From an uncultured Thermodesulfobacteriota bacterium (GTDB lineage Bacteria; Desulfobacterota; B13-G15): a stretch of 64,000 bases of DNA. Location: NCBI GenBank assembly GCA_964543765.1, contig CAZIZI010000005.1:6121-70120 (forward strand), in the 5' to 3' direction. This document shows, in pieces, positions 37,854 through 55,144 of this stretch. A program made the translations under genes and the position numbers. The notes under the pieces are model-generated. The model was not told the origin of the DNA and did not search any database. It was given only the letters and a program-made list of their open reading frames with translations. Every line of letters starts with the position of its first letter. Positions within the stretch are counted from its first letter, which is position 1.

Positions 37854-39464
37854 ATGGTAGACGAAGAATATACGGTGGAGAAGAAAATAGACAGCCTTGA
37901 AGATGTGCTTTCGGCACTTGAAGAGGTGGATGTGCTTGAGGAAAGGTTTATCGAGACCAAACAATCCTTAGAAGAGCCTCTCACGGGTCATTTAGAAGAA
38001 ACGGAATTTGTCCATTCAAGTGACCCTCTAAGGCTTTACCTTAAAGAGATGGGCAAGGTCTCCCTTTTGACGCGGGAAGGAGAGGTGATGCTTGCCAAGC
38101 AGATTGAGGAGGGTAAAAGGGAGATCTTGCGGGTTATCTTGAATTGTCCTTTGACCGTTGATGAGGTCCTCAAACTGGGGGATGCGTTGAGAGAGAACCG
38201 GATGAGTGTAAAGGATATTTCAAACGCTCTGGATGAAGATGACTTCACTGAGGAAGAGGAGGTTTATAAGGAAAGGATCCTGAAGATCATTGATAAGATA
38301 AAGGAACTTAAGGAAGAAATAGCACACCTTCGGGCTCAAAGTGAAATTCCACAAGAGGAGCTGAAGAGAAAAGAAGAAGAAATGGTCTCACTTTTGTCAC
38401 AGGTAAACCTCAAGGAATCACAGATTCAAGCAATGGTAGGCAAACTAAGGGAACTCTTGGATAAGATCGAACAGATGGAGGCCGAGATAGAAAAGATAAG
38501 CGAAAGGTTAGGCACCAATCCCCAAGAGCTTGAGGCTTTTTTTACCTTCATAAAAAAACACCCGGCTAAAAAGAAAGCCCTTTTCCTCGACCGGAACTTA
38601 AATGAGGAGGAATTTTTACAATTAGAAAAGACATATAAACTGCTTTCGGCACGTATCGAGAAGTTTTTGTCTCAACATTTCATCACCGCTGAAGAACTGA
38701 GAAAGGCCATAGAAAACATAGAAAAAGGAGAAAAGAAAGCGAAAGAAGCAAAGGATCAACTTATTAAGGCTAATTTGAGATTAGTGGTGAGTATTGCTAA
38801 GAAGTACATTAATAGGGGGCTCGGGTTTTTGGATCTGATTCAAGAAGGTAATATCGGACTTATGAAAGCAGTTGATAAATTCGAATATAGCCGCGGTTAC
38901 AAGTTTTCCACCTATGCCACCTGGTGGATCCGACAGGCTATAACGAGAGCCATCGCCGATCAGGCTCGTACAATAAGGATTCCGGTTCACATGATAGAAA
39001 CGATAAATAAACTGGTAAGAACCACAAGACAATTGGTTCAGGAACTTGGAAGAGAACCTACGCCAGAGGAGATAGCCTCCAAAATGGAGATTCCCGTGGA
39101 GAAGGTGATTAGGATATTAAAGATCGCGAAAGAACCCATATCGCTTGAGACCCCATTAGGAGACGATGAAGATACCCGTTTAAGAGATTTCATCGAGGAT
39201 AAGAAGACCCTTGGTCCGCTTGATGCGGTTATTTACAAGAGCATGAGCGAACAGATTAGGCAAGTCCTTTCCACCTTGACCGAAAGGGAAGAGAAGGTTT
39301 TGAGGATGAGGTTTGGCATAGAGGAAAAGTACGACCATACCCTTGAAGAGGTAGGGAAGGTATTTAAGGTAACCAGGGAAAGGATAAGACAGATAGAGGC
39401 CAAAGCCTTAAAGAAACTTCGTCACCCTTCGCGGGCTAAAAAGCTTAAGAGTTTTTTGGAATAA
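37854..39464 (+). CDS. rpoD: RNA polymerase sigma factor RpoD (sigma-70)
   Basis: Region 2 [54 protein letters not shown], and a region 4 HTH. Confidence 0.95.
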
Positions 39465-40710
39465 TTTCTTTAAGCTTTTCTACAGCTTCGGAGAGGGGTA
39501 TCTCCTGTTGAGTTCCTTTTTTCATATCTCTAAGGATGAGCTTTCCTTGTTTAAGCTCATCCTCACCTAAGATCAACACAAATGGTATGGATAATTTATC
39601 GGCCCGCCTTAACTGAGCCTTTAAACTCTTATCTTCGTACTCCATCCAAACCGATATGTCTTCTTTTTTTAATTTCCATCCTAAATGAAAGGCGACTTTT
39701 CTTGGTTCCTCTCCAAGTGAAGCGACGAAAAGCTTTACTGGGGAGTCAAGCTCTTTGCGAGGGACAAGAAGAAGCAATCTCTCCATCCCTATGGCAAAAC
39801 CTATTCCCGGTATGTCCGGCCCACCGAGCTCCTTTACCAAGCCGTCGTATCTTCCACCTGCTGCTACCGCATTTTGTGCTCCAAGTCCCTGGGCGATGAC
39901 CTCAAATACAGTTCGGGTGTAATAATCAAGACCTCTGACCAAAAACCGATTTACCTGATAAGGGACTTTTATCTCTTCCAATAATTCCATCACCTTCTCA
40001 AAGTGAGATTTACAACTTTCGCAAAGAAAACCTTCAAGGATTGGGGCTTCCTTTAGAAGCTCTTTGCAAGTCTGAACCTTACAATCGAAAACCCTTAAAG
40101 GGTTAAGCTCCATACGCCTTTGACAATCGGGACAAAGTTTATCCTCATTTTGCCGGAGGAATTTTTGTACTTCTTCTTTAAAGGGAACCCTACACCCCGG
40201 ACAACCCAAACTATTCAATTCTAACCTGAGATCTTCAAGTCCCACTCTCTTTAACAATTCCATCAATAGCCCGATTATTTCCGCATCCACCATCGGATGA
40301 TCAGGGCCTAAGACTTCGGCGTCTATCTGATGGAATTGCCTAAGTCTTCCCTTTTGTGGTCTTTCATAGCGGAACATGGGGCCTATAAAATAAAGCCTTG
40401 CTTCCGGATCTTTTGCCCACAACCGATTCTCCACGTAAGCCCTTACAATGGAAGCAGTAGCTTCAGGCCTTAAAGTCACCCATTGGCCGCTTTTGTCTTG
40501 AAAGGTGTACATTTCCTTTTGAACCACATCAGTGCTTTCTCCGATGCTCCTTACAAAAAGCTCGGTCCTTTCAAGCGTGGGGATCCTTATTTCTTGAAAC
40601 CCAAAACCTTCAAGCGTTCTTCTGGCTTCTTCCTCTATGAAGCGCCAAGTTGGGGTCTCTTCGGGAAGGATGTCCGAAAAACCTCTTATGGCTTTTATTT
40701 CCTTCTCCAT
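39445..40710 (-). CDS. hisS: histidine--tRNA ligase
   Basis: Class II aaRS motifs ([33 protein letters not shown]). Confidence 0.9.
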
Positions 40711-40721
40711 TTTTACCTATT

Positions 40722-41738
40722 TTACCCATAAAGGGTTTTTTTTAAAAACTCCCAAAAGGCCTCCTCCATTTCCATGTTCAATTTTACCCTATAAACCGGA
40801 ACCTCTAAGGGAGGGAACTTCACGAAATCCTTCTCGGTTGTGACTATTGCCTCTACGCCTTTCAATTCCCTTTCTATTTCCTCTTTACTCCACTTGTGAT
40901 GATCTTGTCGGATCAAGGTCTTATAGACGGAGAGTCCTTCGGTCTCCAAAAAATTTAACAACCGATAAGGGTTTCCTATTCCCAAACACAAAAGAAGCCT
41001 TTTCCCTTTCAATTGAGAGAAGGGAATGAGACTTTCCCCTTCCAGAAGTCCCTCATAAAGGGGGTTGGCCAGAAAAATGGGCTTCCCAAAGGCTTTGAGC
41101 CTTTCCAAAAGTTTAAAGCCTTTCTCGGAGCCTTCCCAGTAAGTTAGAAGGAGTAAATGGGCCCTTTTTATCGAAGAAAGGCCCTCTCTAAAGGGACCAG
41201 AGGGAAGAAGCCTTATTTTAGTTATCTCCATGTCAGAAGGGATGCAAAGGATCTCCAAATCCTTTTTAAGCTTAAGGTATTGAAACCCATCATCAAGAAC
41301 TACTGCTTGAAGTCCATGAAGCTCACACAAAAGCTTCCCCAATTTAAACCTGTCTATCCCTACTGCCTGTGGTATATGGGGGAGGCTTTTGGCTAATAAG
41401 TAAGGCTCATCTCCTATGAGCTCCGGTCCCAAAAGAAGGTTTTTCCCCTCTGAGACGATTGTACCCCTTTTGGCCATTTTGCCCTTATAACCCCGGCTTA
41501 AAATCCCCACCTTTACGCCTTTTTCTTTTAACCATTGGGCCATTTTCATCACCACTGGCGTTTTTCCACTTCCCCCTACCGTAAGATTACCTACCGATAT
41601 GACCTTTGTCGGGAGTTCTTTCGGTTTTAAAAGATCGAGTTTATAAAGGAAGCTTCTTCCTTTTAATGCGAGAAGGTAAAGGTAAGAAAGAGGAAGAAGC
41701 ACGTCACTTAAAAAAGGATATTCCCAAGGTGGTTTCAT
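40722..41738 (-). CDS. lpxK: tetraacyldisaccharide 4'-kinase
   Basis: VISVGNLTVGGSGKTP P-loop typical of LpxK. Confidence 0.85.
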   Translation of the reverse strand: MKPPWEYPFLSDVLLPLSYLYLLALKGRSFLYKLDLLKPKELPTKVISVGNLTVGGSGKTPVVMKMAQWLKEKGVKVGILSRGYKGKMAKRGTIVSEGKNLLLGPELIGDEPYLLAKSLPHIPQAVGIDRFKLGKLLCELHGLQAVVLDDGFQYLKLKKDLEILCIPSDMEITKIRLLPSGPFREGLSSIKRAHLLLLTYWEGSEKGFKLLERLKAFGKPIFLANPLYEGLLEGESLIPFSQLKGKRLLLCLGIGNPYRLLNFLETEGLSVYKTLIRQDHHKWSKEEIERELKGVEAIVTTEKDFVKFPPLEVPVYRVKLNMEMEEAFWEFLKKTLYG

Positions 41739-42937
41739 TTAATAAAAATCCCCGCTATTGCTTCTACTGTTTCCTTTAGGGCTCTTCTGCCCTCTTTAAA
41801 AAGGAGTTCCGCTCTTTTGGCCCTTTCACGTGAAGAAGCGGGATCCTTCAAAAGTGAGACTAAAACTTCCCCAAGTTCCTTCGGGTCTTTTACTTGATGA
41901 GCTGCACCGATGGCCTTAAGCCTCTCAGAAAGTTCTTTAAAATTCTGAACAAAAGGCCCATAAACGGTAGGAACCCCCCAGACTAAGGGTTCAAGCAGAT
42001 TGTGACCCCCGATTTTTTTCACAAATGTACCTCCCACCACCGCCACATCCCCAAGGCCATAGAATTTCCAAAGTTCCCCTACCGTATCAAGGACCATCAC
42101 TTCCCAACCGGTTTGTTGCTGGGTTCTTAAACTTGCCTGGAAGCCATAATTTTCAGCTAACTCTTTCATCTCATGGGCCCTTTCTATATGTCGAGGGGCG
42201 ATGATCAATTTAAGAACCGGAAATTCCCCTTTGAGATCCTTAAAAAGACGAAAAAGCAAATCCTCCTCTCCCTTATGGGTACTTCCGGCCACGATCATCT
42301 TATGCCCTTTTAATTCAAGTTCCCTCTTGAGGTCTTCGATTATTCCTTCAAGGGGCTCAAAGGGCTTAAGAAATTTAAGATCACCTGTGACCCTTATCTT
42401 ATCCTCGGAGACCCCAAGCCTTAAAAAACGCTCCCCATCCTCTTCAGACCTTACTAGTAAAAGCGTAAACGCCTCAAAGGCCTTTTTGAAGAAAAACTTA
42501 AAAGGATAAAACCTTCGGAAAGACCGTGCGGAAAGCCTTCCATTAAAAAGTATTACGGGAACCCCTCTTTTCTTTGCCTCTTTTAAAACAGACGGCCAGA
42601 TCTCAGTTTCGCTAACCAGCAGTCCCCGAGGTTTTACTACGTCAAAGAACCTTTGAACCGGGGGGCCAAAGGGTATGGGGAATGGAAGGACTTGATCGAC
42701 TTTACCTTCACCTATTTGTAAGCCCTGAGGGGTCATGGAGGTGAGGAGGAAAGGCAAATTTATAAGAGGCTTGAGCTCTTTTAAAAGCAATAATGTAAGC
42801 CTTACTTCTCCTACCGAAGCTCCATGGGCCCACAAAAAAGGGGCCTTTGAGAGGATATTCCCTTTTAGCCTATGATCCCATAATCCGAGTCTTTCCTTAA
42901 ATCTGTAACTTAAGACTTTAAGAGGCCTTAAAATCAC
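41735..42937 (-). CDS. waaA: 3-deoxy-D-manno-octulosonic acid (Kdo) transferase
   Basis: LWAHGASVGEV...TSMTPQG parallels E. coli WaaA HSVSVGE...TTMTPTG. Confidence 0.85.
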   Translation of the reverse strand: MILRPLKVLSYRFKERLGLWDHRLKGNILSKAPFLWAHGASVGEVRLTLLLLKELKPLINLPFLLTSMTPQGLQIGEGKVDQVLPFPIPFGPPVQRFFDVVKPRGLLVSETEIWPSVLKEAKKRGVPVILFNGRLSARSFRRFYPFKFFFKKAFEAFTLLLVRSEEDGERFLRLGVSEDKIRVTGDLKFLKPFEPLEGIIEDLKRELELKGHKMIVAGSTHKGEEDLLFRLFKDLKGEFPVLKLIIAPRHIERAHEMKELAENYGFQASLRTQQQTGWEVMVLDTVGELWKFYGLGDVAVVGGTFVKKIGGHNLLEPLVWGVPTVYGPFVQNFKELSERLKAIGAAHQVKDPKELGEVLVSLLKDPASSRERAKRAELLFKEGRRALKETVEAIAGIFIK

Positions 42938-44682
42938 ATTCCTTCCAAAAAGGGATGACTTTGAAGTTCATAAAGGCGCCTATATTCTTCGTTTCTTGCC
43001 ATAAGCTCTTCATGGGTGCCTTCATCGATGGTCCTTCCTTCTGAAAGAAGCAGGATCCTCGAGGCGTTTCTTATAGTGGAAAGCCGATGGGAGATTATGA
43101 TGACGGTTCTTGATTCCATTAACCTTTCGAGCGCTTCTTGAATCTCCTTTTCGGATTCGGCGTCAACCGAAGAGGTGGCCTCATCGAGAATGAGTATAGG
43201 CGCATTTTTAACCAAGGCCCTTGCGATGGTGATCCTCTGTCGTTGCCCTCCAGAAAGTTTCACGCCTTGTTCTCCAATCACGGTATCATAACCGTTGGGT
43301 AGTTCCATGATAAATTGATGGGCATTAGCTGCCTTTGAGGCCTCTATGATCTCCTCATCACTCACATCAGGCCTTCCATAGGCTATGTTGTTTTTGACCG
43401 TATCGTTAAACAGTATTATTTCCTGCGTCACTATGGCGATCTGATTGCGTAACGACTTAAGGGTAACTTTTCTTATGTCAATCCCATCTATATAAATTGC
43501 CCCTTCAGTTACATCGTAAAACCTCAAAAGCAAATTGACCAACGTGGTTTTTCCCGCTCCTGAAGCCCCTACTATGGCTACCTTTTCCCCCTTTTTTATC
43601 CTAAAGCTTACATTTCTCAATACCCAGTCACCATCATAGCGAAAGGACACTCTGTCAAAGACAATTTCGTTTTGGAAAGGCGGAAGATCTATTGCATCAG
43701 GGGCCTCTTTTACTTCAGGTTTTTCCTCGAAAAGTTCAAAGACCCTTTTTGCAGCAGCAAGCCCCTCTTGTATCTGAGCGTTAACCTTACTTAGCCCCCT
43801 CAAAGGGTCATAGAGCATGGCCAGAGCCGTCATAAAGGAGAAAAATTCCCCGGGAGTCATCCTGCCCTTTATGACGCTTAACCCACCCAGGAAGATAAAA
43901 CCGGCTATTCCCAAATAACCGAGCGCTTCTATAAGAGGGGTGGATAGAGCCCTTACCCTCAGCCTTTTCATGATATATCGGAAGTATTGATCATTGGCCT
44001 TTTTGAAGCGCTCGATTTCGTAATCCTCCATGCAGAAGGCCTTTACGATTCTTTGTCCCACTATGGTTTCTTGAAGGAAAGCGCTTAAAAATCCCATGCT
44101 TTCCAAGGATTTCCGGCTCGTCCTTCTCATCCTTTTACTTAAATCAACGAAAATCCACCCTATGAAAGGGAAAAGCGAAAGGGCCAAAAGGCCCATCCAA
44201 AAATCCCGATATAGAACCACTCCTATAAGGCCCACCGCAGTGAAAGTATCTTTTATAAAACTTGTAACCGCATAAGAGACGGCCCCTTGCATAGTGTTAA
44301 CGTCATTGGTCAAACGGGACATCAAACTACCGGTGGGATTTCGATGGAAATAAGAAATGGAGAGCATTTGAAGGTGTTGGTAGAGTTTAGCTCTGATATC
44401 GGCTACAACCCTTTGTCCCACGTAGTTCATAAGGTAACTTTGGTAATAATCCAAAAACCCTTTGATGATTCCTAAACCCAAAACAGTTGGAGGGAGTATC
44501 TTTAACATAAAAAGGTCTTTTTTGATGAATATGTCATCAAGCACATTCTTGGTGAGAAATGCCAAAAGGGCCGTGATAGCGGAAACACCTACCATGGCCA
44601 ATCCAGCTACAAGGAGGCGTTTCCAATAAGGTTTAACGAAACCTAAAAGCCTTTTGTATAGGACGAAAGACGTATGTTTCAT
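42934..44682 (-). CDS. msbA: lipid A export ABC transporter (fused permease/ATPase)
   Basis: 6-TM domain plus NBD (GASGAGKTT, LSGGQRQRITIARAL). Lies within the lipid A cluster. Confidence 0.85.
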   Translation of the reverse strand: MKHTSFVLYKRLLGFVKPYWKRLLVAGLAMVGVSAITALLAFLTKNVLDDIFIKKDLFMLKILPPTVLGLGIIKGFLDYYQSYLMNYVGQRVVADIRAKLYQHLQMLSISYFHRNPTGSLMSRLTNDVNTMQGAVSYAVTSFIKDTFTAVGLIGVVLYRDFWMGLLALSLFPFIGWIFVDLSKRMRRTSRKSLESMGFLSAFLQETIVGQRIVKAFCMEDYEIERFKKANDQYFRYIMKRLRVRALSTPLIEALGYLGIAGFIFLGGLSVIKGRMTPGEFFSFMTALAMLYDPLRGLSKVNAQIQEGLAAAKRVFELFEEKPEVKEAPDAIDLPPFQNEIVFDRVSFRYDGDWVLRNVSFRIKKGEKVAIVGASGAGKTTLVNLLLRFYDVTEGAIYIDGIDIRKVTLKSLRNQIAIVTQEIILFNDTVKNNIAYGRPDVSDEEIIEASKAANAHQFIMELPNGYDTVIGEQGVKLSGGQRQRITIARALVKNAPILILDEATSSVDAESEKEIQEALERLMESRTVIIISHRLSTIRNASRILLLSEGRTIDEGTHEELMARNEEYRRLYELQSHPFLEGM

Positions 44683-45797
44683 CTCATCAACTCTAAAGCT
44701 ATCTGTGCAACCCTTTCAGGTGCACCCCTTGGTAAAAGCTCCCTCAAGCGTTCCGAAACAAATTCCATCTCTCCTTTTTTATTTTCGTCCAAAAGCAAAT
44801 TTTTGGCTACTTCGGCTAACTGGGAAGGAGTCGCTTCTCTTTGGATCAGTTCGGGAAAGACCAACTTTCCCAAAAGGAGATTTGGCAAAGCTATAAAGGG
44901 AACCTTTACCAAGGCCTTAGCAAAAAAATAAGAAAGCGGATTTACCTTGTAAATTACCACCATTCTCTTTCCCATAAGGGCTCCTTGTAAAGTGACGGTA
45001 CCAGAAGCTGCTATCACAAGATCAGATGCAGCCATAACCCGAAGAGGGTCGTTCTTTATGATCTTTATTCCCTCTTTTATTTCAAAAAAATCGTCGCTTA
45101 AACCAGGTACAAGGGCTAAAAGCGCTTTGAGGTTTGAAAATTCCCTTTTTAAAAGCTTAACCGTTTCAACCATTACCTTCAGGTGCCTCTTAACCTCTCC
45201 CTTTCTTGAGCCTGGGAAAAGCCCGATGACCTTTTCCTCGGACGTGATTCCTAAAGAGATTCTGGCTTCTTCGGCTGAAGGGGCCTTTTCGATTATTTCC
45301 CTTTGAGGATGTCCCACAAAATGAGCTTCTATGCCGTACTTTTTAAAGAATTCGTCTTCAAAAGGCAAAATCACCGCAAGACGATCCACATACCCCTTTA
45401 ACTTTTTGGCTCTACTTGGCCACCAGGCCCAGATTTGGGGACTAACATAATAAAGTATGGGGATCCCCCATTTCTTTAATTTTTTGGCCAAATGGAGGTT
45501 AAAACCTGGGAAATCTATCAGAATAGAGAGGTTAACTTGAAGGGTTTTTATTTCTTTCTCTATTAACCTTAAGGCCCTCCACAATTTTGGTATTTTCGGA
45601 AAGACCTCAAATAATCCCACCACTGAAAGCTCTTCCATTCTGCATAGGCTTCTTAAACCAGCCTTCCTTAATTCGGGGCCTCCTATTCCAAAGAAATCAA
45701 ATTCGGGGTGTTTTTCCTTAAGGAAGAATACCAGTTGGGCACCGTAAAGATCGCCTGAGGCTTCACCAGCCACGATCAATATGTGTTTTTTCTTCAT
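44679..45797 (-). CDS. lpxB: lipid-A-disaccharide synthase
   Basis: ILIVAGEASGDLYGAQL N-terminal signature. Confidence 0.9.
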   Translation of the reverse strand: MKKKHILIVAGEASGDLYGAQLVFFLKEKHPEFDFFGIGGPELRKAGLRSLCRMEELSVVGLFEVFPKIPKLWRALRLIEKEIKTLQVNLSILIDFPGFNLHLAKKLKKWGIPILYYVSPQIWAWWPSRAKKLKGYVDRLAVILPFEDEFFKKYGIEAHFVGHPQREIIEKAPSAEEARISLGITSEEKVIGLFPGSRKGEVKRHLKVMVETVKLLKREFSNLKALLALVPGLSDDFFEIKEGIKIIKNDPLRVMAASDLVIAASGTVTLQGALMGKRMVVIYKVNPLSYFFAKALVKVPFIALPNLLLGKLVFPELIQREATPSQLAEVAKNLLLDENKKGEMEFVSERLRELLPRGAPERVAQIALELMR

Positions 45798-46699
45798 CCA
45801 GATAAGGCAAGCTTAGAAATCTCTAAAGCCAATTGAAGGGCCTTAAGGCCTTCTTTGGCAGTAACAGGAGGTGATGATCCCTCTTGGATGCTTCTCACAA
45901 ACGCCTCTATTTCCTCTTTTAATGCATCCTTTTTTTTACCCCCTTTTTTGATAAGTCCATTCTCTTTAAAAACGAAGCTATGGTTTAAAAGATCCAAAGT
46001 TAACTCACCTTGTTCCTTTATAAAATGGATGTTCCTCACTTTTTGTTGAGCTACCCTGCTTGAGGAAAGCCTTATCTCCACCCCTTCTTCCGTTTCGATG
46101 ATCGCCTGGGCTTCGTCAATAAAAGGAGTTTTCACCCTTTTACCCCATGCCTTAAGTCTTTTAGGCTTTACTCCCACTAGATACTCCAAAAGATCAAGAT
46201 CATGGATCATTAGGTCCAATATCACATCTATGTCGAAATTCCTCTCTGTCCAAGGCGAATGCCTTATCACCTCCACCCTTTTTATGTCCTTTAAGAAGTC
46301 CCAAATGCCTTCCAATGCCCCATTGAACCTTTCAAGATGACCTATTTGTAGTATCAAATTACGGCTTTTTGAGATCTCCTCAAGATGCAGGGCCTCTTCA
46401 AGATTTGAAGTCATGGGTTTCTCTAAAAGTACATGCGTCCCATTGAGGAGGAAATCCTTGGCTATTTTATAGTGAACGGAAGTGGGAGTGGCAATACTTA
46501 CGGCCTCCACCTCCCCCAAAAGTTCTCGGTAATCAAAAAATGGCCTACTTCCTACCTTCCGAGCCACCTCTTGGGCCCTTTCGGGCAAAATATCCACAAC
46601 TCCTACCAGCTCCACTTGGGGCATGGAAGCAAACTTTTGAGCATGAAGTTCTCCCCATCTTCCTACCCCAATTACCGCTATCTTTAGCTTTTCCTTCAT
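45794..46699 (-). CDS. Gfo/Idh/MocA-family NAD-dependent oxidoreductase (candidate UDP-GlcNAc 3-dehydrogenase GnnA)
   Basis: KIAVIGVGRWG Rossmann motif and EKP motif. Embedded between lpxB and fabZ-lpxA. Confidence 0.6.
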   Translation of the reverse strand: MKEKLKIAVIGVGRWGELHAQKFASMPQVELVGVVDILPERAQEVARKVGSRPFFDYRELLGEVEAVSIATPTSVHYKIAKDFLLNGTHVLLEKPMTSNLEEALHLEEISKSRNLILQIGHLERFNGALEGIWDFLKDIKRVEVIRHSPWTERNFDIDVILDLMIHDLDLLEYLVGVKPKRLKAWGKRVKTPFIDEAQAIIETEEGVEIRLSSSRVAQQKVRNIHFIKEQGELTLDLLNHSFVFKENGLIKKGGKKKDALKEEIEAFVRSIQEGSSPPVTAKEGLKALQLALEISKLALSG

Positions 46700-47916
46700 C
46701 GAGTAATTCCCCTTTTGCTACCTTCGAGAAACTCCACCAGATCCTTAACCTCAGGATAGGTGAAAAGCTCGCTATTTTTGATTTCCTCTATACACCCTTT
46801 TAAAGGCTTTGAAGAACGGAAAAGTATCTTATAGGCTTTTCGAAGGGCCCTTATGACCTCATCGGAAAAGCCGTTCCTTTTGAGATTGGTCACGTTAATA
46901 CCATATAATTTAGCCCTTATGCCTGAAGCTGTAACATAAGGAGGTATGTCCTTGGGTACTGCTGTGGCACCCCCTATGAAGGCGAATTTCCCTATTCTCA
47001 CGAATTGATGTACCGCTGCCACCCCTCCTATTATAGCATGATCCCCCACCGTTACATGACCTGCAAGTTGCGCTGCGTTTGCCATTATGACGAAATCGCC
47101 AAGTTGGCAGTCATGAGCCACATGGGCATAGGCCATGATGAAGTTATTATTCCCTACTTTTGTTAAACCGCCTCCAAAACTTGTACCTCGATGAATGGTC
47201 ACAAACTCCCGAATCACCGAATTGTCACCGATTATGACACTGGTCTTTTCACCTTGATAACGGATGTGTTGAGGAGGTGTACCTATGGATGCATGGTGGA
47301 AAATCTGACAATTTTTACCTATGACAGTTCCTTGATCTATTACCACATGGGATCCAATCCAAGTGTTCTCACCGATTTTAACGTCTTCTCCAATAATGGA
47401 ATAGGGTCCTATCTCAACCCCTTCGGCTAATTCACAGGAGGGATGAACTATTGCGGTAGGGTGTATTTGGGGGGATTTGGATTTATTTTCTCGAATCATA
47501 GCCATTATCTCGGCCTCAGCCACAATTTGTCCATTTGCCTTGGCTTTTCCTCGGAAAACCCATATGTTCCCCCTTCTTTTCACCGTCTCCATTTCCAAAA
47601 GCAACTGATCACCGGGTAAAACCGGCCTTCTGAATTTGGCTTCCCTTAGGGCCATGAGGTAAACCCCCTTGCCCTCGGCCTCCTCTCCCATGGCCTTATA
47701 CGCCAAAATCCCCGCTGTTTGAGCCATGGCTTCGATTATCAACATACCGGGCATCAATGGGTCACCCGGAAAATGGCCCGGGAAAAAGGCCTCGTTGTAA
47801 GTGATGCTTTTCAACCCCACAATTCTACGGGGAACTTCTATCTCAATCACTCGATCTACAAGCAGAAAGGGAAAGGCATGAGGTAAAATTTGCATGATCT
47901 CTTTAATGTCCATCAT
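46696..47916 (-). CDS. lpxA: fused 3-hydroxyacyl-ACP dehydratase FabZ / UDP-GlcNAc O-acyltransferase LpxA
   Basis: Residues 1-145 form a FabZ hot-dog fold (LPHAFPFLLVDRV, HFPGDPLMPG). Residues 150-406 show LpxA hexapeptide repeats and its C-terminal helical domain. Confidence 0.85.
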   Translation of the reverse strand: MMDIKEIMQILPHAFPFLLVDRVIEIEVPRRIVGLKSITYNEAFFPGHFPGDPLMPGMLIIEAMAQTAGILAYKAMGEEAEGKGVYLMALREAKFRRPVLPGDQLLLEMETVKRRGNIWVFRGKAKANGQIVAEAEIMAMIRENKSKSPQIHPTAIVHPSCELAEGVEIGPYSIIGEDVKIGENTWIGSHVVIDQGTVIGKNCQIFHHASIGTPPQHIRYQGEKTSVIIGDNSVIREFVTIHRGTSFGGGLTKVGNNNFIMAYAHVAHDCQLGDFVIMANAAQLAGHVTVGDHAIIGGVAAVHQFVRIGKFAFIGGATAVPKDIPPYVTASGIRAKLYGINVTNLKRNGFSDEVIRALRKAYKILFRSSKPLKGCIEEIKNSELFTYPEVKDLVEFLEGSKRGITR

Positions 47917-48953
47917 CTGGATTCCCCTTTTAATTTTTCTTCAATAAGGCTTATTCTTTCCTCAAGCTCTTTTAGGGATTTCCTCAACTCTGGAAGCTTA
48001 ACCAATTCAGCTGCCACCCTCATCCATCTCCCATGCGGCATCTGAGGCACACCGCCCACCTTTTCGTTGGGTTCCACATCCCTGAATATCCCCGCTTTGC
48101 CCGATACCTTGACTTCATCCCCAATTTTAACGTGATCCGATATTCCCACCTGACCCCCTATAATGACACCCCTCCCAATGACCGTACTTCCTCCTATTCC
48201 AACTTGAGCCACAATGAGGCAATTCTCCCCTATGGAGACGTTATGCCCTACTTGGACGAGATTATCTATTTTGGTTCCTCTTCCTATTTTGGTCCAACCA
48301 AAGGTGGCCCTGTCTATTGTACAGTTGGCCCCAATCTCCACATTATCCTCGATCTTAACCCCCCCTATTTGAGGGATTTTAAAGACGGCATCTCCCTCTT
48401 TAAGATACCCAAACCCATCAGAACCTATGACAGTTCCCGCGTGAATTATAACCCTTTTGCCTATGATTGTTCCTTCGTAAAGGACAACGTTAGGATAAAG
48501 GATGCTCTCTTCTCCGATTTTTACCCTTGAACCCACATAAACACCCGGATAAAGGATGACTCGATTGCCAATCTCCGCTTCATCCCCTACGTAAACAAAT
48601 GGACCTATATAAACGTCTTGGCCAATCTTAGCCGAAGGACTGATCCAACAATGGGGGGAGATGGAAGGGGAAGGAAGCTTTGTAGGATAAAACTTTTCCA
48701 TAAGCTTCACGATTCCCAAGTAAGGATTGGGAAGGATTATCAAAGGTATAGGCGAGTCCACTTCTTTAAAAACTATAGCCGCCGAAGCCCGGGTGGAAAA
48801 AAGGAACTTCAAGTACTTTTCTGAGCCCACAAACGTCAAATCGCCTTCCTCAGCTTCCTCAATACCCTTAATGCCCCTCACCTTAATTGAAGGGTCCCCA
48901 ATTAACCTCCCTCCCAAAATCTGGGCGATCTCCCCTAAGGTCAGTTCCCTCAT
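47913..48953 (-). CDS. lpxD: UDP-3-O-acylglucosamine N-acyltransferase
   Basis: LpxD N-terminal domain plus left-handed beta-helix hexapeptide repeats. Confidence 0.9.
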   Translation of the reverse strand: MRELTLGEIAQILGGRLIGDPSIKVRGIKGIEEAEEGDLTFVGSEKYLKFLFSTRASAAIVFKEVDSPIPLIILPNPYLGIVKLMEKFYPTKLPSPSISPHCWISPSAKIGQDVYIGPFVYVGDEAEIGNRVILYPGVYVGSRVKIGEESILYPNVVLYEGTIIGKRVIIHAGTVIGSDGFGYLKEGDAVFKIPQIGGVKIEDNVEIGANCTIDRATFGWTKIGRGTKIDNLVQVGHNVSIGENCLIVAQVGIGGSTVIGRGVIIGGQVGISDHVKIGDEVKVSGKAGIFRDVEPNEKVGGVPQMPHGRWMRVAAELVKLPELRKSLKELEERISLIEEKLKGESR

Positions 48954-49471
48954 GGCTTCTTGGCGTCAAGGGCCTTTATGACTTCATTGGTCAAATCGAT
49001 CTCCGGAGGAGCATAAAGGATGAAGCTTCTTTGCTTTTCCAATATGAGGGTATAGCCCTTACTTTTGCCGATATTTGCTATTATACCCTCTATTTCCTTT
49101 AGTATTTCAGCCACTGCTTTACGTTCCATTTCTTGAAGTTCTTGTTGCGAATCGCTAACAAACTGTTCAAGTTGCCTTCTTTTTTGATCGAATTGCTTTT
49201 GTTTTTCCTTTAAAACAGTTTCACTCATCAAAGAACCTTTCTTTTCTATTTCGTCCCTTAAAACGTTTAATTCTTGTTGCATCTGTTGAAATTGCCGATC
49301 AAGTTCTTTGCCTCTCGCTTCTATTTTCGCCTTTGCTTCTTGCCCCTTTTTGGATTCACTTAACACCCGTTGTACATCCACATAACCGATTTTAAGCTGT
49401 TGAGCGAAACTCAGAGAACATAGAGATAAAACGGAGAAAGCCACTACCCATTTTACCAATCTCATTTCCAT
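48950..49471 (-). CDS. skp: periplasmic chaperone Skp (OmpH)
   Basis: Signal peptide, KIGYVDVQRVL and long coiled-coil region. Positioned between bamA and lpxD. Confidence 0.85.
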   Translation of the reverse strand: MEMRLVKWVVAFSVLSLCSLSFAQQLKIGYVDVQRVLSESKKGQEAKAKIEARGKELDRQFQQMQQELNVLRDEIEKKGSLMSETVLKEKQKQFDQKRRQLEQFVSDSQQELQEMERKAVAEILKEIEGIIANIGKSKGYTLILEKQRSFILYAPPEIDLTNEVIKALDAKKP

Positions 49472-49501
49472 CCTCCTTTTAGGATTTGTTTTTTTCCAAT
49501 T

Positions 49502-51748
49502 TTAGTACATTATACCCACTGCGAAATCCCATACCCCCCTCTTCTCCCCCTTTTTGGGGAAGAGATTATATCCCCAGTCTATCCTTATTGGCCCTAAAGG
49601 TGAATACCATCTTATTCCCGCTCCTACCGCGTGCTTTAAAGGTGTAATGTCCTTCCATTCGTCAAATCCCTTACCCACATCGTAAAACAAGGCGAGCTTG
49701 AGTCCAAGCTCTTTGCTTAAGGGATAAAGGAATTCGAAGTTAAACACCACCATCTTTAAAGCCCCTATAGGTTCCTTATTCTCATCCACTGGTCCTGCCA
49801 TGCCGTACTCGAAGCCTCTTATAGTCCTTAAACCTCCCACGTAAAACTTTTCGCCAAGGGGTATCTTTTTTCCCCCGTACTCCTCTATGATCCCGAGTTT
49901 ACTCCGGAAGTTAAAGACTAAGTCTCCTTTTATGGGTTTGAAATAACTTATTGAAAGACTCGCCCTAAGAAAATCCACATCACCCCCAAGAAACCTTCCC
50001 GCGTTGGTTAAGGTGAAATCGTTGTCCCATCCTAGGGTAGGACTGAAAGGATCATCTAATGTCCAGTAGCTAAAACTCAAGGTGGCTTTACTTGTGGTGC
50101 TTACTCCTTGGTAGGATTTAATGTACTCCGAAGCATCTTCGCTTACGTTGAAGACCTTTTGTCTTTCATAACGGTAAGAAAGGCTAACGCTTAAGCGATC
50201 CGTTAACTCCTTGCCAATTACTACGTCTCCTCCCCTTATACGATAATCATAAGTGGTATACTTATAAGTTTCATTGAAGAGGTCGAAACCTATTGAATAA
50301 GAGGAATCCAAAAACCTTGGGTCACTAAAGCCGAGGGAAAATTCGTTCATCTTCCCTCCGAGGGTGGCCTTTAAGTAGCCTCGATAGGCCCTTCCAAAGA
50401 GGTTCTTTTCGGATACTGAGATCATTCCCACCAAACCGTGGACCGAGCTATAACCGCCTCCGAATTGAAAGGCACCTGTTGGCATCTCTTCTACCTTCAC
50501 ATCCAAATCAAGCACATTGGGCCTTGCCCCTGGTACGGGATTAAAAGTCACTTCTTTAAATATGCCTAATCTTTTGATCCTCTTTTGGCTCTCCCTCATT
50601 TTAACGGCGCTATAGGTCTCACCTTCTGAAAGCTTTATCTCCCGCCTTATGACCTTGTCGTGGGTTTTGGTGTTTCCATGGATGTGGACGCGGCCAAGGT
50701 ATACCTTTTCTCCTGGTTCTACTTGGAAAACCACTTTTACGAGGCCTTTCTCTGGTTCCCGAAAACTAAGAGGCCGAACCTCTACAAAGGCATACCCTTT
50801 ATCCGCATAATAATCCACTAATTTTGAAACATCCCTTTCCACCTGGGAGATGCGATAAACCTTATTTGGTTTGGTCTCGAGCTTGACCTTCTTGAGGATT
50901 TTTTCCTTAGTCTCAATGAGTTCACCTTGAAGGTCTACAGTTCCCACCTTATAAGGGATTCCTTCCTCGATTTTTATTTCGATAAAAAGGTACTTACCAT
51001 CTCGTGAGGAGTTTATTTTGGGTTCATCGATTTTGACATCAAGGTACCCATTGTCCTGATAAAAATACCTTATACGTTGAAGGTCAACTTGTAAGATCTC
51101 TTTATTAAAAGTTCCCGATTTGGTTAACCAGCTTAGCCAATCCTTCTCCTTGGTTTGCATCAATTTTTTTAGGGTTCGAGAGCTAAAACTCCTGTTTCCC
51201 ACAAACCTTATCTCCCTTATAGCCCCCTTGGGCCCCTCATATATGTCTATGAAGACCCTTACTTCGTTATCGGGAAGTTCTTCCACTTCACTCTCAATGG
51301 AGGCCGTATAAAACCCCTTAGAAGCGTAAAGATTTTTCAAAGCCTCTTCGGTTTCTCGGAGCAACTCTTCTTCGAAAAACTCGCCTTTTTTTATCCTTGA
51401 AACCCCTTCGATCTCTTCCCGTTTCAACCTTTGGTAACCTGAGATGATTAAATCTTTGACCTTTGGCTTTTCTTGAACGATATAAGTTAAAATCACCCCG
51501 TCTTCTTTTTCCTCCAAATGGACCCTTATGTCGCGAAAATATCCGAGTGCGTAAAGAGCCTTTACGTCGTCAGAGACCACCTCTTTATCGAACGGTTCAT
51601 TTTCTTTGCTTTTTATCGTCCTTAGGATTACTTCCTTTTCTATTTTCACATTCCCCACAATTCTTATTTCCTTTATTGGCTTTTCACAAAGGCCCAAAGT
51701 CGGAAGAAGCGTCATAAGAAGGATTAACCAGGCCATTTTATTTACCAT
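49502..51748 (-). CDS. bamA: outer membrane protein assembly factor BamA
   Basis: 748 aa with signal peptide, POTRA repeats, C-terminal beta-barrel and terminal aromatic residue. Confidence 0.9.
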   Translation of the reverse strand: MVNKMAWLILLMTLLPTLGLCEKPIKEIRIVGNVKIEKEVILRTIKSKENEPFDKEVVSDDVKALYALGYFRDIRVHLEEKEDGVILTYIVQEKPKVKDLIISGYQRLKREEIEGVSRIKKGEFFEEELLRETEEALKNLYASKGFYTASIESEVEELPDNEVRVFIDIYEGPKGAIREIRFVGNRSFSSRTLKKLMQTKEKDWLSWLTKSGTFNKEILQVDLQRIRYFYQDNGYLDVKIDEPKINSSRDGKYLFIEIKIEEGIPYKVGTVDLQGELIETKEKILKKVKLETKPNKVYRISQVERDVSKLVDYYADKGYAFVEVRPLSFREPEKGLVKVVFQVEPGEKVYLGRVHIHGNTKTHDKVIRREIKLSEGETYSAVKMRESQKRIKRLGIFKEVTFNPVPGARPNVLDLDVKVEEMPTGAFQFGGGYSSVHGLVGMISVSEKNLFGRAYRGYLKATLGGKMNEFSLGFSDPRFLDSSYSIGFDLFNETYKYTTYDYRIRGGDVVIGKELTDRLSVSLSYRYERQKVFNVSEDASEYIKSYQGVSTTSKATLSFSYWTLDDPFSPTLGWDNDFTLTNAGRFLGGDVDFLRASLSISYFKPIKGDLVFNFRSKLGIIEEYGGKKIPLGEKFYVGGLRTIRGFEYGMAGPVDENKEPIGALKMVVFNFEFLYPLSKELGLKLALFYDVGKGFDEWKDITPLKHAVGAGIRWYSPLGPIRIDWGYNLFPKKGEKRGVWDFAVGIMY

Positions 51749-51760
51749 TTTTAACCTCCT

Positions 51761-52450
51761 TTAGCTCCTTTCCTCCTTGATTAACAGACCATCAGCCATA
51801 TAAAGCCTTCTGGGAAAGAAGAAAGCCAATTCCAAATTGTGAGTCACTACTACCACCGTTGTCCCGTAAGAGCGATTAAAGTCCTGTAAGATCGCTATTA
51901 GTTTTTTGCCCGTTTTGGAATCCAAATTTCCCGTGGGTTCATCGGCAAGAACTATCTTAGGGTTCATCACTAAGGCTCGAGCTAAAGCCACTCTTTGTTG
52001 TTCCCCTCCGGAGAGCTCTCCAGGTCGGTGTTTAAGCCTAGAGCCTAAATCCAGTCTTTCCAAAATTTCTTTAGCCCGTTTAACAGATTCTTGGTAAGAA
52101 AGACCCGCCAAAAGACAGGGGACCATCACGTTTTCTAAAGCGTTGAGGTCAGGAAGAAGGTAATGAAATTGAAAGAGAAACCCCATTTCCTTGTTTCTCA
52201 ATGAAGAGAGTTCCTCCTCCCTTAAATCCTCTACAGCTCGTCCTCGGTACTTAACGGATCCAGAGGTGGGCCTTTCCAAAGTCCCGAGAATATGTAAAAG
52301 CGTGCTTTTCCCCGCCCCTGAGGCTCCCAGTATGGCTATCATCTCGCCTTCTTTTATACTCAGATCGATCCCCTTAAGGGCCCATATCTCTTCAGATCCA
52401 AGTCGGAATACCTTCGTAACGCGAGATGCTATAAGTAACTCCTCACTCAT
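51761..52450 (-). CDS. lolD: lipoprotein-releasing ABC transporter ATP-binding protein
   Basis: [25 protein letters not shown]; paired with an FtsX-type permease gene. Confidence 0.8.
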
Positions 52451-53675
52451 ACCTTAAGACCTCTACTGGATCTAGATTTGATGCTTTCCAAGCTGGGTAA
52501 AGCGATGAGAGAAGGCTTAATGAAAGGGCCAAGATCACAATAGCTACTGTATCCGTTAAATCCAGCTTTGATGGGACTTCCGTGATGTAATAGACATCTG
52601 GAGGCAGGAATTTAAGTCCGAATAAAGTTTCAAGCATATTGGCGATTCTCGAAATATTTAAAGACAGAATAATACCACCAAGGGTTCCGATAAAGGTTCC
52701 TATGGTGCCTATCAAAAGGCCTTGATAGAGGAATATCTTCAGGATGGTCTTCTTTTGAGCTCCCATCGACCTTAGGATGGCTATTTCTCGTCTTCTCTCC
52801 ATAACACTCATCATAAGGACGCCAATTATGTTGAAGGCTCCGACCGCCACAATTAGCGAGAGCAGGATAAACATCACCCTTCTTTCCATCCTTAAAGCGT
52901 AAAACAAGTTCTTGTTCATCTCCATCCAATCCCGGGTGAAAAAGAAACCTCCCAAAAGCCTTTGGATCTGTTTTGACACCCTATGGGCTTGATAAATATC
53001 CTTCACCCTTATGGCAAGATGGGTGACCTTATTATTCAAAGAGAGAAAACTTTGAACATCCTCAAGGGGAGCTAAGATTAAAGCCACATCGTAATCGTAC
53101 ATACCTGCTTGAAAGATGCCGCTTATTACTACGTCTTTTACTCTCGGGATCATGCCAAAAGGATGAAACCTTCCCGAAGGTGAGACTAACCTCAACCGAT
53201 CCCCAACCCTTACGCCCAGAATTTTTGAAAGCTCAACTCCTACCCAAACTTCACCGCTTTTTAAGTTCCTTTCGCCATCCAAAAGTTTTTCCTGAAGATA
53301 TGAAAGTTCCGGGGCCTCACGGGTTATCCCTCTTAAAACCGCACCGGAACTCGCGTAGTCCGAACTTACTATAATTTGGGTCAAAACCATGGGGCTTAAA
53401 GAACTTATTTCTTTTAAACCCTTGAGCTTTTTGCTCGCTTCCTCAGGTAAAAAGGGGCCTTGGTGATTTAATACTAACACATGGGCCGAAAGGGCCAAGA
53501 TTTTCTCCTTTATTGCCTCTTGGAAGCCGTTCATAACCGATAAGACTACTATGAGGGCTATTACGCCAAGACTCACCCCTAACAGGCATATGAAGGTTGC
53601 TATTGATATGAAACGTTCCCTTTTTTTCGACTTCAGATGCCTCAGTGACAAAAAAAGCTCGAAAGAAGGCCTCAA
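52443..53675 (-). CDS. lolC: lipoprotein-releasing system permease (LolC/LolE, FtsX family)
   Basis: 410 aa, 4 TM helices with a large periplasmic loop and FtsX C-terminal domain. Confidence 0.75.
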   Translation of the reverse strand: MRPSFELFLSLRHLKSKKRERFISIATFICLLGVSLGVIALIVVLSVMNGFQEAIKEKILALSAHVLVLNHQGPFLPEEASKKLKGLKEISSLSPMVLTQIIVSSDYASSGAVLRGITREAPELSYLQEKLLDGERNLKSGEVWVGVELSKILGVRVGDRLRLVSPSGRFHPFGMIPRVKDVVISGIFQAGMYDYDVALILAPLEDVQSFLSLNNKVTHLAIRVKDIYQAHRVSKQIQRLLGGFFFTRDWMEMNKNLFYALRMERRVMFILLSLIVAVGAFNIIGVLMMSVMERRREIAILRSMGAQKKTILKIFLYQGLLIGTIGTFIGTLGGIILSLNISRIANMLETLFGLKFLPPDVYYITEVPSKLDLTDTVAIVILALSLSLLSSLYPAWKASNLDPVEVLRYE

Positions 53676-55144
53676 GGTTTTTTCCTCATGTGGGGAAAGA
53701 GAATTACATCCCTTATAGAGGGAGAATCGGTAAAAAGCATGACCAAACGATCGATGCCTATTCCTTCGCCAGCTGTGGGAGGAAGCCCATATTCCAAGGC
53801 CAAAAGGAAATCCTCATCTATCAACCCCTCCCATTCCTCCAAGTTCCTCTTTTTCAACTGTTCTATAAACCTTTGCCTTTGGTCTTCGGGATCGTTCAAT
53901 TCGGTAAAACCGTTGGCTATCTCCTTTCCTAAGATGAAAAGCTCAAACCTCTCTACGAACCTTGGGTCATCGGTCTTTCTCCTGGCAAGTGGGGAAACTT
54001 CAACGGGATAATCGATTATGAAGGTGGGTTGGATCAAATGAGGTTGAACCAATTCTTCGAAAAGCAGATTGATCAACTCCCCGTGGGACTCATCGCCCTC
54101 TAATTTTAGTCCTAAACCCTTACAAGTCTCCAAAGCCTTGAGAGGGTCTCTTACCTCTTCATCTAAGCCCCTTTGAATTAAGGCTTGGACCATGGGGATC
54201 TTGGGCCAGGGTGGAGTGAGGTCAATTTCGATTCCCTGATAACTTATTTTGAGGGATCCGTTTGTCTTTTGGGCTATTTCACAGAACAATTCTTCCGTAA
54301 GATGCATTAAATCTTCATAATTGCTGTAAGCCTGGTAAAACTCGATCATCGTGAACTCGGGGTTATGAAGGCTTGAAACCCCTTCGTTCCGAAAGTTTTT
54401 CCCTATCTCAAAGACCTTTTCAAACCCTCCAACTACAAGCCTTTTAAGATAAAGTTCTGGTGCGATCCTCAAATAGAGCTCCATTTCCAGGACATTATGA
54501 TAGGTCTTAAAGGGTTTGGCCCGGGCTCCTCCGGGTATAGTTTGAAGGATAGGAGTTTCTACCTCGAGGAAGCCCCTTTTTATGAAAAATTCCCTTATCA
54601 TTTGGATGATAAGGGTACGCTTTCGAAAGGTCTCCCTTACGTGAGGATTTACGATTAGATCAAGGTATCTTTGACGATAACGGATCTCCACATCCTTTAA
54701 AGCATGCCATTTTTCGGGTAAGGGCCTTAGTGACTTACACAGAAGTTTAAACCAATGGACCTCCAGGGTTAACTCACCTGTTCGAGTCTTAAAGGGTTTG
54801 CCTCGGACGGCTATTATGTCTCCTATATCGAGCTTTTTGAAGAACTTTAGGACCTCTTCACCAAGGGTGTTTTTCCCAAGATAGATTTGGATGCGCCCTT
54901 CTTGGTCCTGAATATGAGAAAAAACAGCTCCTCCAAAATCCCTTATGCTCATTATCCTTCCGGCAATTAGATATTCTTCCTTTAAGTCTTGAAGTTCCGA
55001 TGTCGATAAATGGCCGTAGCGATCTTTAAGGTCTTTGGAACTACAATCGACTTTGAACCCTCTCGGATAAAGCTCTATACCCTCTTCTTTTAGCCTCTGC
55101 GCTTTTTCCTTCCTCTGTTTTAAAAGCTGGCTCTCCTCCATCAT
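53672..55144 (-). CDS. lysS: lysine--tRNA ligase (class II)
   Basis: N-terminal OB-fold followed by a class II catalytic core. Confidence 0.9.
   Translation of the reverse strand: MMEESQLLKQRKEKAQRLKEEGIELYPRGFKVDCSSKDLKDRYGHLSTSELQDLKEEYLIAGRIMSIRDFGGAVFSHIQDQEGRIQIYLGKNTLGEEVLKFFKKLDIGDIIAVRGKPFKTRTGELTLEVHWFKLLCKSLRPLPEKWHALKDVEIRYRQRYLDLIVNPHVRETFRKRTLIIQMIREFFIKRGFLEVETPILQTIPGGARAKPFKTYHNVLEMELYLRIAPELYLKRLVVGGFEKVFEIGKNFRNEGVSSLHNPEFTMIEFYQAYSNYEDLMHLTEELFCEIAQKTNGSLKISYQGIEIDLTPPWPKIPMVQALIQRGLDEEVRDPLKALETCKGLGLKLEGDESHGELINLLFEELVQPHLIQPTFIIDYPVEVSPLARRKTDDPRFVERFELFILGKEIANGFTELNDPEDQRQRFIEQLKKRNLEEWEGLIDEDFLLALEYGLPPTAGEGIGIDRLVMLFTDSPSIRDVILFPHMRKKP

Follow-up and report, generated by a model that had tools for sequence, protein, structure and literature searches.

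The 64,000-nt stretch of DNA analysed here (contig CAZIZI010000005.1 of an uncultured Thermodesulfobacteriota bacterium, hereafter the window) contains a single open reading frame (ORF) in which the 3-hydroxyacyl-acyl carrier protein (ACP) dehydratase FabZ is joined to the lipid A acyltransferase LpxA. We consider this, with a probability of about 85%, to be a genuine and recent in-frame fusion of the neighbouring genes fabZ and lpxA within a single species-level lineage of Thermodesulfobacteriota from hot springs. The gene lies on the minus strand, which had not been named in the first-pass annotation of the window, and no internal stop codon interrupts its 406 codons. It is made up as follows:

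46696..47916, minus strand: fused fabZ-lpxA gene, one ORF of 1221 nt with an ATG start, encoding 406 aa
47494..47916, minus strand: FabZ domain (aa 1–141), 3-hydroxyacyl-ACP dehydratase of the hot-dog fold, with catalytic H48 and E62
47467..47493, minus strand: linker (aa 142–150, RENKSKSPQ), the fusion site, with a net 10 nt more than in relatives that have separate genes
46696..47466, minus strand: LpxA domain (aa 151–406 and the stop codon), left-handed beta-helix and C-terminal helical domain, with catalytic H268

The first-pass annotation had read this ORF as a complete FabZ followed by a complete LpxA, and this was borne out by the uninterrupted frame and by matches at the equivalog level. 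The NCBIfam FabZ equivalog TIGR01750 matched aa 2–141 over its whole profile (positions 1–141 of 141; 182.1 bits, cut-off 155.15), with NF000582 (FabZ) scoring 179.5 bits (cut-off 113), while the LpxA equivalog NF003657 matched aa 148–406 (profile positions 3–260 of 264; 374.3 bits, cut-off 226), with TIGR01852 (LpxA) scoring 349.8 bits (cut-off 231). Pfam searches of the 406-aa protein detected a FabA-like domain at aa 11–136, Hexapep repeats, and the LpxA C-terminal domain Acetyltransf_11 at aa 323–404. The junction, previously estimated to be near position 47480, was indeed found there, at approximately aa 142–150 (nt ~47467–47493). The GC content of the fused gene is 45.6% versus 44.6% for the window, and no second fabZ or lpxA was found within the window, where the paralogous LpxD was the only other match. 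Two plus-strand ORFs are antisense to the fused gene (79 aa at 47191–47430 and 87 aa at 46540–46803), and are presumed to be by-products of minus-strand coding and not genes.

The catalytic residues of both enzymes are present in the fused protein. In the FabZ half, H48 and E62 align with H54 and E68 of the E. coli enzyme, and in the LpxA half H268 corresponds to H125, the catalytic base of E. coli LpxA, with H265, H287, H303, Q216, G316 and R347 also conserved and the position of E. coli LpxA K76 taken by R219. Alignment of 46 fused proteins showed H48, E62, H268, H265 and R347 to be invariant, and H287 and H303 to be conserved in at least 90%. The AlphaFold model built on this alignment had a mean predicted local distance difference test score (pLDDT) of 93.3 and a predicted template modelling score (pTM) of 0.65. 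Its FabZ half closely matched C. jejuni FabZ (3D6X; target-normalised template modelling (TM) score 0.97, root-mean-square deviation (rmsd) 0.9–1.5 Å), as did its LpxA half P. aeruginosa LpxA (5DEP; target-normalised TM score 0.98, rmsd 1.2 Å), and the linker was the least confident part (pLDDT ~77 for the ten-residue block aa 141–150). No chain spanning both halves was found in the PDB. With complete folds, intact catalytic residues and the strong purifying selection described below, the polypeptide is most likely a bifunctional dehydratase and acyltransferase, as far as can be inferred from its sequence and model.

Some of the FabZ-LpxA fusions in sequence databases look artefactual, among them P0012–P0015, P0028 and P0051, which come from short ENA contigs. 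In the E. coli-like proteins P0013–P0015 and P0028 the fabZ stop codon is read as a sense codon (e.g. SREA[S/C/G]YVIDKSAF), in the E. coli-like P0012 it is deleted, and P0051 has a scrambled FabZ C-terminus; with the exception of P0051 these are single-member clusters, each found on one or two contigs, and all six are probably errors or rare variants. Independent support was therefore needed for the fusion in the window, the linker of which contains a C6 run (G6 on the plus strand, ~47469–47474) where an indel, or alternatively a miscalled stop codon, could falsely join two separate genes. The same 1221-nt ORF was found on six further public contigs, which differ in sample and assembler and belong to at least five assemblies (L001–L003 from JGI, JGI 3300009590, ENA ERZ27245638 and a GTDB metagenome-assembled genome (MAG)). 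The three JGI metagenome contigs L001–L003 (two of which are named GBS...77) and L007, the Thermodesulfobacteriota MAG from GTDB, also share the gene order of the window; their ORFs are 94.8% identical to the window ORF, and the ORFs of L091 and L092, from two further assemblies, are identical to it.

Together the seven sequences represent five nucleotide haplotypes in two lineages that are 63–64 of 1221 nt apart, and all are 1221 nt long and in frame. The junction DNA varies between the haplotypes (AAATCCAAATCCCCCCAAATA in the window, AAACCCAAATCTCCCAAAGTA in L001 and AAACCCAAATCCCCAAAAATA in L007) and always keeps the frame, giving a junction peptide of RENK(S/P)KSP(Q/K)(I/V)HP. The C6 run is missing from L001–L003 and L007 (TCTCCCAAAG and TCCCCAAAAA), which are still in frame. 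Between the two fused lineages dS (synonymous substitutions per site) was approximately 0.23. The ratio of non-synonymous to synonymous rates (dN/dS) was 0.053 in the FabZ half and 0.032 in the LpxA half, and both halves are under strong purifying selection. The junction was searched for the hidden stop codon or frameshift that the first-pass annotation had named as a possible pitfall, and none was found in any haplotype. The difference from unfused relatives, described below, also amounts to 10 nt and the loss of the lpxA ATG and Shine-Dalgarno sequence, which is more than a slip of 1 nt, and a sequencing or assembly artefact is thus extremely improbable; a homopolymer or stop-codon sequencing error in particular is ruled out by the in-frame haplotypes and the purifying selection.

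The closest relatives of the window gene are not fused. The Thermodesulfobacteriota MAGs L004 and L012 have separate fabZ and lpxA genes that are 81–82% identical to the window in both halves, and separate genes were also present in L005, L006, L013 and L015 (77–81% identity), L014 (75%), and L017, L021 and L053 (63–74%). All ten close relatives retrieved therefore have two genes with overlapping stop and start codons (ATGA in most), in agreement with the earlier statement that fabZ and lpxA are normally adjacent but separate. The concern that related genomes would show two genes and the window copy a pseudo-fusion was thus justified for the relatives, but not for the copy itself, which is conserved and under selection. 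In the relatives, fabZ ends in ...MAMIREK(D/E)(L/G) and a TGA stop codon, which overlaps the ATG of lpxA (MIHPTAIVHP) as ATGA, and an AGGGAG ribosome-binding site precedes this ATG. The distance between the conserved AGG and CAC codons is 27 nt in the fused lineage versus 17 nt in L004 and L005, a net gain of 10 nt that brought both frames together, and the fused lineage retains no recognisable fabZ stop codon, lpxA ATG or ribosome-binding site. The linker contains short AAAYCC/CCAAAT-like repeats, and the additional nucleotides may thus stem from slippage or duplication.

Neighbour-joining trees of each domain placed the fused clade inside the Thermodesulfobacteriota with separate genes, far from the other fused families, and only one of the 80 GTDB-representative loci fetched was fused (L007), in a scan that used peptide patterns specific to the window and had the fused proteins of other phyla outside its reach. 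We therefore conclude that the event was recent and is restricted to one species-level lineage; its position in the trees indicates that it arose inside an unfused clade, separately from the fusions of other phyla. Inheritance or horizontal transfer from a fused family of another phylum was considered and rejected, as both domains are 81–82% identical to those of unfused neighbours, whereas their identity to other fused proteins does not exceed 57% for FabZ and 54% for LpxA, while the gene order is the same as in the relatives and the GC content of the gene matches that of the window.

Fused FabZ-LpxA proteins were also detected in other phyla. In a search of 5.8 billion proteins, approximately 100 of the best 120 matches were fused (407–440 aa, covering 97–100% of the query at 44–50% identity), and in a library of representatives clustered at 50% identity approximately 20 of the best 150 clusters spanned both halves, among 2261 hits at E≤1e-30. 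These proteins come from Vicinamibacteria (Acidobacteriota-type; linkers of 5–7 aa), Planctomycetota (15–21 aa), Margulisiibacteriota and others, including a further group with linkers of 21–23 aa and a group with a PELPELGI tail to which a Margulisiibacteriota MAG belongs. In the Margulisiibacteriota-type proteins P0018, P0030, P0036, P0053 and P0072, this C-terminal tail is a conserved acidic and hydrophobic ...PE(L/I)PE(L/I)GI sequence, which is lacking in stand-alone LpxA. Three proteins of 585–587 aa (P0002, encoded at L090 4001–5764, P0003 and P0125) contain two tandem FabZ copies followed by LpxA, in a bamA-skp-lpxD context, and the catalytic His and Glu are kept in both FabZ copies.

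Examples of fused genes from other phyla are located within lipid A operons on contigs of 119–743 kb, and the architecture is therefore viable; in the neighbour-joining trees the families fall into clades that lie far apart and far from the window, consistent with repeated independent fusion across phyla. The first-pass annotation, which contrasted the fusion with the separate genes of most bacteria, was right about what is normal, but the architecture is less unusual than this implied, as it is common in several other phyla. In the databases these proteins are annotated only as LpxA ('acyl-ACP--UDP-N-acetylglucosamine O-acyltransferase'). NCBIfam contains no bifunctional FabZ/LpxA model, only the LpxC/FabZ model NF009667, and the literature searched contained no natural FabZ-LpxA fusion, with 'fabZ-lpxA' used only as operon notation or for engineered two-hybrid fusions and the LpxC-FabZ fusion (PMC516016, PMC3087551) the only one described. 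The window gene is thus a new and independently arisen member of an existing, uncharacterised and under-annotated architecture, and not a new type of system.

For the origin of the fusion we propose an ancestor in which fabZ and lpxA were translationally coupled via their overlapping stop and start codons. The net 10-nt gain at the junction would have shifted the frame by +1 and removed the fabZ stop codon, the lpxA ATG and the ribosome-binding site, so that LpxA would be produced solely at the C-terminal end of a ~45-kDa FabZ-LpxA chain, behind a 9-residue linker. In this chain, the N-terminal domain would dehydrate (3R)-hydroxyacyl-ACP for fatty-acid elongation, and lipid A synthesis would begin with the C-terminal domain passing the same acyl group to a UDP-sugar. 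Both competitors at the branch point would thereby be set at a fixed 1:1 ratio and assemble together, which may alter the partitioning of 3-hydroxyacyl-ACP. As FabZ forms hexamers (trimers of dimers) and LpxA forms trimers, the simplest assembly compatible with both would be a D3 hexamer in which a FabZ core is capped at both ends by an LpxA trimer. By the same assembly logic, a trimer of FabZ-FabZ-LpxA would hold six FabZ and three LpxA domains in a C3 particle. Since translational coupling was in place before the fusion, expression is expected to have changed little, and the fusion step was probably close to neutral or of slight advantage; a tolerated, near-neutral fusion is more likely than a strongly adaptive one.

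Several points weigh against a recent fusion that acts as a single bifunctional protein. The proposed oligomeric arrangement is deduced from the separate enzymes, and a pTM of 0.65 together with the linker pLDDT of ~77 says little about the packing of the domains and leaves their orientation undefined. The linker has no unambiguous alignment to the unfused junction, such that the exact mutational path of the 10-nt gain is not reconstructable, and the sequences cover only 64–106 kb of the genome, so a second fabZ or lpxA may be present elsewhere. Finally, cleavage of the linker or internal initiation could free LpxA, in which case the fusion might be functionally silent, with LpxA (and perhaps FabZ) still acting as a separate protein. 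The linker is rich in Lys, Ser and Pro as well as being the least confident part of the model, and the ATG codons of the conserved MAMI motif, 10–12 codons ahead of the LpxA core, have a GAGG 8 nt upstream. All unfused relatives share this GAGG...ATG arrangement, which in them encodes the FabZ C-terminus and is thus no evidence of a start site, while the ancestral Shine-Dalgarno sequence and ATG of lpxA have decayed in the fused lineage. Without a stop codon FabZ cannot terminate, and hence the fused chain is at least synthesised; moreover, the retention of fused forms with linkers of only 5–7 aa in many other phyla argues for a functional fused protein. We consider a silent fusion quite improbable.

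Conversely, the fusion may have been selected, with the tethering of both competitors for (3R)-hydroxyacyl-ACP setting the split in flux between phospholipids and lipid A and either replacing or supplementing control of the LapB/FtsH type. This would fit the recurrence of the fusion in several distant clades, the 2:1 domain ratio of the FabZ-FabZ-LpxA variant, which matches a FabZ hexamer with an LpxA trimer, the analogous LpxC-FabZ fusion (PMC516016, PMC3087551), and the gathering of E. coli FabZ and LpxA on a LapB scaffold (PMC13477621). However, fabZ and lpxA are adjacent, and overlap in most of the close relatives covered, which makes fusion an easy mutation and its recurrence alone no proof of selection; in comparable environments the nearest relatives do without the fusion, and fused forms are a small minority of LpxA clusters (the ~20 of the top 150 representatives). 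Adaptive coupling is possible but doubtful. A wider reading, in which FabZ-LpxA fusions are a convergent hard-wiring of the phospholipid/lipid A branch point, with symmetric FabZ6-LpxA6 particles (FabZ6-LpxA3 in the double-FabZ variant) in which both competitors would draw on the same ACP molecules and the flux would be split by geometry and stoichiometry instead of regulated proteolysis, is more speculative still, and we regard it as unlikely; if it were true, no known case would be younger than the lineage of the window, whose unfused sisters at ~81% identity would make it ideal for a test. We therefore retain a recent and probably near-neutral fusion as the most plausible explanation.

The fused gene is part of a compact operon for envelope biogenesis, in which its immediate neighbours overlap it on both sides:

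39445..55144, minus strand: envelope-biogenesis operon of 13 genes
47913..48953, minus strand: lpxD, directly upstream of the fused gene, with a 4-bp ATGA overlap onto it
45794..46699, minus strand: GFO/IDH/MocA oxidoreductase, directly downstream of the fused gene and between lpxA and lpxB, with a 4-bp ATGA overlap

The order of the operon is lysS, lolCE-like, lolD-like, bamA, skp, lpxD, fabZ-lpxA, oxidoreductase, lpxB, msbA, waaA, lpxK and hisS, and neighbouring genes overlap by 4 bp at eight stop/start junctions, a layout which makes fusions mutationally easy. A tblastn search with an LpxC protein query gave no match anywhere in the window, and the committed step of lipid A synthesis is therefore encoded elsewhere. 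The oxidoreductase scored 200 bits to a model of archaeal UDP-GlcNAc 3-dehydrogenase, under the cut-off of that model, and may be GnnA-like. Members of the GFO/IDH/MocA family were also observed near lpx genes in unrelated phyla (L087 from Margulisiibacteriota, where it lies beside a DegT aminotransferase, L089 and L090), while tblastn with a DegT query gave no match in the window. A GnnA-like function, if true, would imply lipid A of the GlcN3N type and an LpxA that uses UDP-GlcNAc3N.

A Gram-negative cell has to share out its carbon between phospholipids and lipopolysaccharide, and at this point FabZ and LpxA are rivals for the same acyl-ACP; in E. coli the balance between the two products is essential and heavily regulated via LpxC, FtsH and LapB. 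Both enzymes have R-3-hydroxymyristoyl-ACP as their common branch-point substrate, and in E. coli both are associated with the LapB hub (PMC13477621; PMC3087551). A natural 1:1 locking of the two competitors offers a test of whether a physical link is by itself enough to control the branch point, and the value of the window lineage for this lies in its youth, as the unfused sister genomes allow a clean comparison of fused and split forms. The fusion has been fixed repeatedly yet is annotated as LpxA only, and the FabZ function is silently missed in the genomes concerned.

Compared with the separate lpxD-fabZ-lpxA genes of E. coli and most Gram-negative bacteria, the window has the same enzymes, gene order and catalytic residues, and with L004 and L012 it also shares the bamA-skp-lpxD-fabZ-lpxA-oxidoreductase-lpxB context and 81–82% identity in both domains. 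The difference lies in the junction, where the separate genes have ...REKDL and a TGA over the lpxA ATG, whereas the window, with its net 10 nt more, has one frame without stop codon, ATG or Shine-Dalgarno sequence. The FabZ-LpxA fusions of other phyla have the domain order of the window, with FabZ N-terminal, and likewise have short linkers (5–23 aa), invariant catalytic residues and a lipid A operon context, but differ in being only 44–50% identical, in their linkers, and often in having C-terminal tails (PELPELGI, RRDEMVADD). The FabZ-FabZ-LpxA proteins also have FabZ N-terminal to LpxA, with two FabZ copies instead of the one in the window. Finally, the FabZ-LpxA fusion parallels the known bifunctional LpxC/FabZ (NF009667/PRK13188) of Chlorobium, Bacteroidota and Verrucomicrobiota, in which FabZ is likewise fused to a neighbouring early lipid A enzyme of its cluster, so that a single chain connects the fatty-acid and lipid A branches (PMC516016, PMC3087551). 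The window protein is not a member of that family, as it scored 183 bits to NF009667 against a cut-off of 465 and matched only profile positions 320–463, the FabZ part; in LpxC/FabZ the LpxC deacetylase is N-terminal to FabZ, whereas in the window LpxA is C-terminal to it.

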